This document shows, piece after piece, positions 8,948 through 9,170 of a stretch of 13,878 nt of DNA (positions are counted from its first letter, which is position 1; every line of letters begins with the position of its first letter). The notes beneath the pieces are model-generated. The model did not search any database. It was not told the origin of the DNA and saw only the letters and a list, made by a program, of their open reading frames with translations. Origin of the DNA: a virus (lineage: Duplodnaviria > Heunggongvirae > Uroviricota > Caudoviricetes); the IMG/VR virus record IMGVR_UViG_2529293142_000032, positions 1 to 13,878 of that record. The stretch is one strand, 5' to 3'. Both the position numbers and the translations under genes were made by a program.

Positions 8948-9170
8948 CTGTTCACCTTTTGATATTTTCTCTTTTAATTCATAATGTTAAGGGGTGAACA
9001 GTTTCACAAAAACTATTCACCAACTGTTCACCACTGTTCACCCTTGAAGCTCAATAAACAATCAAAAAAGTGAACAGTGAATAGTTTGGTGAACAGTTCA
9101 TAAATAACTGTTCACCCTATAATATACTGATATAAAAGATATTTATGACAGGGTGAACAGTGGTGAACAG
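8948..9170. repeat. Iteron array / putative origin of replication (P4-type ori)
   Basis: Eight perfect copies of TGTTCACC or its complement GGTGAACA, at 8949, 8993, 9026, 9036, 9088, 9109, 9152 and 9162, plus about 3 imperfect copies. Both orientations occur within an AT-rich 230-bp intergenic region directly downstream of the helicase gene. Confidence 0.7.

Follow-up and report, generated by a model that had tools for sequence, protein, structure and literature searches.

In bacteriophage P4, the regions ori and crr are both needed in cis. The P4 alpha protein is known, from the work of Ziegelin and Lanka and of Yeo and colleagues in 2002, to bind the octamers in these regions through its C-terminal origin-binding domain. 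In the GenBank record of P4 (NC_001609.1), TGTTCACC carries the label 'ori type 1 repeat' at six places in ori and at ten in crr, and crr (4291–4590) is located directly downstream of the alpha gene (4636–6969), 4.7 kb away from ori. The domain order of alpha is a DnaG-type primase followed by an SF3 helicase and a winged helix (PMC2777425).

For Gram-negative PICIs, a one-directional gene arrangement was described, and their origin was stated to be the region 3′ of the initiator gene (Fillol-Salom et al., 2018, ISME J; PMC6092414). [quoted passage not shown] The text of that paper, figure 2a aside, makes no mention of any allele with P4's own iteron.

The window analyzed here (the whole stretch of DNA, 13,878 bases) showed 97% identity to an island of E. 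coli EC12 that is inserted in the interval from mug (tRNA-Ile) to nfeF. The following genes were identified besides the initiator gene:

1–1209, minus strand: complete IS256-family transposase ORF of 402 aa (NCBIfam, E 1e-128), at the left end of the window
1382–1678, minus strand: PerC-family activator gene, one of two
7362–7676, minus strand: PerC-family activator gene, the other of the two
7631–8155, minus strand: ProQ/FinO-domain RNA chaperone
8292–8654, minus strand: element-encoded SSB gene (Pfam SSB, E 1e-16)
8651–8896, minus strand: 81-aa ORF directly after the putative origin (phrog_1231, no assigned function; EcCICFT073 has an 85-aa ORF in the same place)
10998–11297, minus strand: DUF4222 gene, its stop overlapping the helicase start (ATGA); syntenic with EcCICFT073
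11617–12801, minus strand: 394-aa ORF, the last ~50 residues of which form an Icd-like cell-division-inhibitor domain
12811–13029, minus strand: AlpA-like HTH gene (excisionase-regulator; HTH_17/phrog_66)

The gene order was the same as in EcCICFT073, namely integrase, AlpA-like HTH, Icd-like, DUF4222, helicase, array, small ORF, SSB and PerC, the integrase being a tyrosine recombinase that lies just past the window's right end in the EC12 locus. The element is a Gram-negative PICI and not a P4-like satellite. Similarity to EC12 begins only at position 1282, which indicates that the left part of the island is interrupted or truncated here by the insertion sequence. PICI-borne PerC homologues have been reported to activate the LEE pathogenicity island (PMC6092414). 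The order helicase, ori, 81-aa gene, SSB, FinO and PerC given in the preliminary description was borne out by Pfam, with all genes on the minus strand, and its picture of an origin embedded in a long leftward gene array fits the gene layout, since the leftward genes have overlapping or close ends and neither terminators nor sigma-70 promoters were predicted in 8500–9500. No Rfam families or tRNAs were detected in the window, and the cargo ORFs of unknown function gave no matches to defense systems. In the annotation of the EC12 locus, a pseudogene and a short Icd-like gene occupy the stretch corresponding to 11617–12801, and the 394-aa ORF may be a fusion or a mis-call.

The gene adjacent to the array encodes a helicase with the following parts:

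9184–11001, minus strand: initiator-helicase gene, 605 aa (Pfam D5_N, DUF5906 [SF3 helicase] and Pox_D5 winged helix; toprim-like N-terminus)
9223–9513, minus strand: C-terminal winged-helix origin-binding domain, 97 residues (match to PDB 1ka8, P4 alpha, E 1.8e-24; AF2 pLDDT >90)
9262–9291, minus strand: predicted beta-hairpin wing KRKTKHGLRS, which co-varies with the iteron among relatives
10657–11001, minus strand: N-terminal toprim-like domain, ~115 aa, in which the catalytic Glu and the acidic DxD residues are missing

The ATG at 11001 was taken as the start because RefSeq annotates the EC12 locus (97% identical) in this way; the mechanically called ORF starts with GTG at 11016. The helicase showed 48% identity to P4 alpha over alpha residues 290–771, which comprise the helicase and origin-binding regions, and no similarity to alpha 1–289 was found in it. 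Compared to EcCICFT073 Pri-Rep, 49% identity was found over the full length (596 residues), N-terminal domain included. In the toprim-like N-terminus, FAG replaces EG (the EGYATA motif of alpha is absent) and there is no conserved DxD; searches of Pfam and NCBIfam gave no match for this domain. Judged from these residues, the N-terminus is probably not an active primase. The protein is named 'DNA primase family protein' in RefSeq and 'Pri-Rep' in the PICI literature, and the toprim-like ~115-aa domain also occurs fused to RepA/AAA_25 helicases.

Eight perfect copies of TGTTCACC were found at 8949–9169 in both orientations, within a 287-bp intergenic region (8897–9183). The DNA of the array is AT-rich, with 32–33% G+C compared to 50–55% in the coding flanks, and the array begins 13 bp past the helicase stop codon (9184–9186). 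In 5000 dinucleotide-preserving shuffles of the intergenic DNA the mean count of TGTTCACC was 0.024 and the maximum 1; in the 13,878-base window there were 11 copies against 0.55 expected, a number reached in none of 200 whole-window shuffles. The true repeat unit was shown to be the 9-mer CTGTTCACC, for which 12 sites with at most two mismatches were found, all in 8940–9170. Four of these are degenerate, with one mismatch each at 9013–9021 and 9069–9077 and two each at 8940–8948 and 9076–9084. The preliminary description had thus placed the eight perfect copies correctly, in both orientations and in AT-rich intergenic DNA, and counted one degenerate copy too few ('about three'); a lack of enrichment over shuffled sequence, which it had named as a refuting outcome, was not observed, the counts being far above expectation both locally (8 against 0.024) and window-wide (11 against 0.55). 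In the literature search, the octamer was found in primer sequences only.

The sites were found to be arranged as two inverted copies of one module, with spacings of about 10/44/21/11/10 bp:

8916–9194: putative origin, full extent; imperfect ~270-bp palindrome centered near 9055 (inverted repeats I1, I2 and I8)
8940–9042, plus strand: distal iteron module, inverted copy of the proximal one (spacings 8/45/20/11/10 bp)
8940–8948 (two mismatches), 8948–8956, 8993–9001 (inverted), 9013–9021 (one mismatch), 9024–9032 and 9034–9042: sites of the distal module
8957–8992: distal AT-rich spacer, 36 bp, from the iteron pair to the inverted iteron; conserved in part in the corresponding P4 spacers (ori and crr)
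9043–9068: central AT/T-rich spacer, 26 bp, between the two facing iteron triplets, delimited from the sequence
9069–9170, minus strand: helicase-proximal iteron module, reading + + - + + + on the minus strand; aligned with P4 ori
9162–9170, 9152–9160, 9108–9116 (inverted), 9088–9096, 9076–9084 (two mismatches) and 9069–9077 (one mismatch): sites of the proximal module
9117–9151: proximal AT-rich spacer, 35 bp, counterpart of 8957–8992 with the same alignments

Besides the 12 iterons and the three AT-rich spacers, the region contains symmetric AT-rich flanks (8916–8932 and 9179–9194), and on the right it extends into the helicase gene, where it takes in the stop and the last codons. As single-stranded DNA, 8916–9194 folds into a single long hairpin (-48.6 kcal/mol, z = -7.0). 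In keeping with the definition of PICI origins (PMC6092414), the iteron triplets face each other across 9043–9068, and two more AT-rich spacers are present inside the modules.

Comparison with P4 showed a relationship at the DNA level. A blastn search of the array region against phage records matched the annotated P4 origin, with 8975–9047 joined to P4 ori. In a multiple alignment, both modules of the window, P4 ori, both modules of EcCICFT073 and both modules of vB_KppS-Ant, a prophage-derived satellite, were in register, including part of the ~35-bp AT-rich spacer. The organization of the module is the same as in P4, with the identical octamer in an iteron pair, a ~35-bp AT-rich spacer, an inverted iteron and a triplet, and spacings within 1–3 bp (10/44/20/12/7 bp in the proximal module compared to 10/43/22/11/10 in P4 ori). 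The two 120-bp repeats of P4 crr match the first 75 columns (iteron pair, spacer and inverted iteron), beyond which they diverge. The proximal module is oriented to the helicase gene as P4 ori is to alpha, and the distal module as crr is to alpha, so that the window resembles the split clusters of P4 joined head to head. The initiators are also alike, with 48% identity over the SF3 helicase and the winged helix and the wings KRKTKHG-LRSN (window) and KRHTKQG-IQTN (P4). However, ori and crr are 4.7 kb apart in P4, whereas the window contains one palindromic double module without type II repeats and without a terminator between the initiator gene and the sites; in addition, the initiator lacks the DnaG-type primase domain of alpha, and the other genes of the island are not those of P4 (no sid, psu, delta or epsilon). 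For the P4 type II repeat GCTTTAAGTG, 14 matches with at most two mismatches were found compared to 12.5 expected, which is chance level, and there was no tandem set.

The preliminary description had identified the octamer as the P4 type I iteron at ori and crr and the helicase as alpha-like. The annotation of NC_001609.1 agrees with the former, and both modules were shown to align with P4 ori column by column, spacers included; the identity to alpha 290–771 and the match of the C-terminal domain to 1ka8 agree with the latter. Its reading is supported, with the refinements that the element is a PICI, that one palindromic double module stands in place of a bipartite ori/crr, and that the initiator has no alpha-type primase domain. 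That alpha binds type I iterons is taken here from the GenBank annotation, the 1ka8 match and the reported work of Ziegelin and Lanka; PMC9942202 contained nothing useful on crr.

A close similarity in organization was found with EcCICFT073. Its 288-bp intergenic region contains the same double-module palindrome (+ + - + + + / - - - + - -), built from TGTCTACC/TATCTACC. The two loci share the position directly 3′ of pri-rep, a region of ~288 bp, two six-iteron modules, the gene order and a Rep with 49% identity. They differ in the iteron, which is TGTCTACC/TATCTACC in EcCICFT073 and TGTTCACC in the window, with a wing that differs accordingly, and in cargo, as the window has ProQ/FinO and two PerC genes and no capsid genes. 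Since the origin was placed 3′ of the initiator gene in PMC6092414, the window contains an allele of an origin kind that has already been described; this kind of origin and its position are known. What goes beyond the literature consulted is the exact match of iteron and module to those of P4, the palindrome that is fused where P4 has a split ori/crr, the co-variation of wing and iteron, and the probable lack of primase activity.

For this co-variation, 72 loci with relatives of the helicase were compared, one genome per species. In close relatives the position and layout of the array were kept, and the octamer differed by lineage. Six octamer variants were found (TGTTCACC, TGTCTACC, TGTCCGCC, TGTCCACC, TGTGCACC and TCTCTACC), each with a distinct wing in an otherwise conserved domain. 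TGTTCACC was present in Raoultella, Kluyvera, Pluralibacter, Citrobacter and Klebsiella, TGTCTACC in E. ruysiae, K. georgiana and Enterobacter, TGTCCGCC and TGTCCACC in Serratia, TCTCTACC in Symbiopectobacterium, and TGTGCACC, as a single module only, in Proteus. An alignment of the C-terminal domains showed near-full conservation between groups except for the segment after the third helix, where KRKTKHG-LRSN was paired with TGTTCACC, RAKCTKGPDKGRVITN with TGTCTACC and KAESKKKATRGRIQSN with TGTCCGCC. In the AlphaFold model (pLDDT >90 across the domain) this variable segment is a beta-hairpin after the recognition helix, and the wing of winged-helix domains is a known DNA-contacting element (PMC2777425). 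In nine relatives whose iterons are of the TGTTCACC type, conservation was 76% in the iteron columns compared to 55% in the other columns (p = 9e-7). The alpha-like loci of Xenorhabdus and Photorhabdus showed weak, less regular repeats downstream of the gene and were left out of this argument.

Taken together, the array is very likely the vegetative replication origin of an EcCICFT073-type E. coli PICI. This reading is supported by homology to the tested pri-rep-ori segment of EcCICFT073, the Rep of which is only 49% identical and works with another iteron, and by the co-variation of iteron and wing. Position alone is no proof of origin function, since the cluster directly 3′ of alpha in P4 is crr and not the start site.

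The array could instead be a crr-like cis-acting replication enhancer, with the true start site elsewhere in the element. In P4 it is crr that lies directly downstream of alpha, with ori 4.7 kb off, the distal module has the orientation of crr and matches its first 75 columns, and the true P4-like relatives L018, L028 and L032 keep separate clusters. However, no second TGTTCACC cluster was found in the window or in the complete, 97% identical EC12 element, where the copies outside the array are isolated single ones; the six iterons of the proximal module are laid out as in P4 ori and not as in crr; and the homologous EcCICFT073 region together with rep alone supports plasmid replication (PMC6092414). 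We therefore consider a crr-like role unlikely.

An explanation that we regard as somewhat less probable still is that the sites are mainly operators for the cargo (81-aa ORF, SSB, ProQ/FinO and PerC), replication being secondary or absent. The distal iteron pair is located 44–52 bp upstream of the start of the 81-aa ORF, no terminator was predicted between the helicase gene and the cargo, and a conserved AT-rich stretch follows the last iterons. Against this, the array was shown to go with the helicase and not with the cargo, as an element whose downstream genes are entirely different has it at 99% identity, homology with other elements ends at ~8875, and no sigma-70-like promoter was predicted (8500–9500). 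Moreover, where the helicase type was replaced and the cargo kept, the array was replaced too: in H7/L081, the same cargo is preceded by a RepA/AAA_25 helicase with unrelated repeats (CCTCACTTTT and ATTCCCCACT) at the same position. The sites may nevertheless have a regulatory side-role beside replication. That the short repeats form a packaging (cos/pac), partition or recombination site is very improbable. In its favor, a satellite requires packaging signals, and a cruciform could arise from the palindrome. Against it, the repeat unit is the P4 replication iteron and co-varies with the helicase's DNA-binding wing, the array has no linked gene for a terminase, ParB or a recombinase, and it is common to elements with unrelated packaging modules.

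Another locus, H6, was considered as a case in which this cargo goes with another replication module and was rejected, as its helicase was 98% identical and the break proved to be a tandem duplication in the 81-aa gene. In E. coli 2015C-4136CT1 (L080, 16090–16300), a ~110-bp tandem triplication disrupts the homologue of the 81-aa gene beside the origin. L018, a P4-like element of Erwinia rhapontici, contains two separate TGTTCACC clusters (52–144 and 6508–6610), the former lying 3 kb upstream of the alpha gene and the latter 2 kb downstream of it, in the split ori/crr arrangement.

A classical iteron plasmid origin of the RepA/pi/TrfA type has direct repeats of 17–22 bp, contains DnaA boxes and uses a non-helicase initiator. 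This type of origin was rejected for the window because the sites are 8–9 bp long and occur in both orientations, no DnaA box was found in 8897–9183, and the initiator is an SF3 helicase. SaPI origins of S. aureus, as Ubeda and colleagues reportedly described in 2007 (cited in PMC6092414), are located directly 3′ of the rep helicase gene and have two iteron sets that flank AT-rich DNA; the Rep C-terminus and the iterons are reportedly matched in specificity. The organization of the window appears analogous, with unrelated iterons and, for SaPIs, a Gram-positive host. In SV40 (large T antigen) and papillomaviruses (E1), inverted short sites flank AT-rich DNA and are recognized by the origin-binding domain of the SF3 helicase, which forms a head-to-head double hexamer; these may serve as an analogy for the loading mechanism only, as both the DNA-binding fold and the sites differ.

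For the window allele, we infer binding, double-hexamer loading, a melting site, replication and dependence on DnaG as follows. The helicase encoded just upstream of the array would be the initiator, and its C-terminal winged-helix domain would bind the 12 (C)TGTTCACC sites, which are expected to lie on roughly one face of the DNA, since their spacings are near whole helical turns. The two inverted P4-ori-like modules would set SF3 hexamers in opposite orientations around the AT-rich spacers; the AT-rich DNA would then melt, with the central spacer (9043–9068) as the candidate melting site, and forks would depart in both directions. As the helicase appears to have no functional primase domain, primers would probably be supplied by host DnaG, and the element would supply its own SSB.

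Because the octamer and module are the same and the wing is nearly the same, P4 alpha could fire or titrate the PICI origin, and the PICI helicase that of P4. The combined reading, in which P4 and PICIs share initiator-iteron specificity, their origins cross-talk, the palindrome is a fused 'ori plus crr' and Pri-Rep is not a primase, is put forward tentatively, and we think it rather less probable than its opposite. If it were true, there would be cross-talk between two satellite families regarded as independent whenever both share a cell, the fused palindrome would be a natural union of ori and crr, and the Pri-Rep of E. coli PICIs would be no primase at all. P4 would then need crr in cis because initiation takes two opposed iteron modules, one per hexamer, and the fused origin thus offers a testable reason for the long-known need for crr. 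The DNA-level homology to P4 ori and crr suggests a closer replication tie between PICIs and P4 than the 'distant homology' of the literature. The kept layout, with octamer changes that track a wing of 10–15 residues, may provide a compact natural series for the study of initiator-origin co-evolution.

Of 5426 complete E. coli genomes, 594 contained the origin at ≥90% identity, and among the matches listed there was no annotated feature under it. It would mark the replication module of a common phage-satellite family with PerC-type virulence regulators. A different cargo with a 99% identical rep-ori was found in NZ_CP148328.1 (L079, pZ1323HEC0475-3), a circular record of 10,790 bp. This record gives circumstantial support for replication, and could also reflect excision without autonomous replication. 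It was deposited as a plasmid and contains a complete PICI (int, AlpA, Icd-like, DUF4222, rep, ori and a prohead protease/capsid fusion), presumably an excised circular satellite caught by the assembly.

Three lone perfect copies of TGTTCACC were found outside the origin (~0.5 expected), at 10455–10463 (minus strand), 7541–7548 (plus strand) and 13171–13178 (minus strand). The first lies inside the helicase gene, where it encodes TVHH, and has an inverted partner with one mismatch at 10486–10494; one of the three is located near the regulatory region of the AlpA-like gene. These copies may be due to chance or may be weak autoregulatory sites. Just upstream of the AlpA-like gene (13085–13165), a TAGCCAG(C/T)T(A/G)TT-like motif is present in three copies (aatagccagttgc, aatagccagctatt and actagccagctatt), which could be operator sites of the island's activator.
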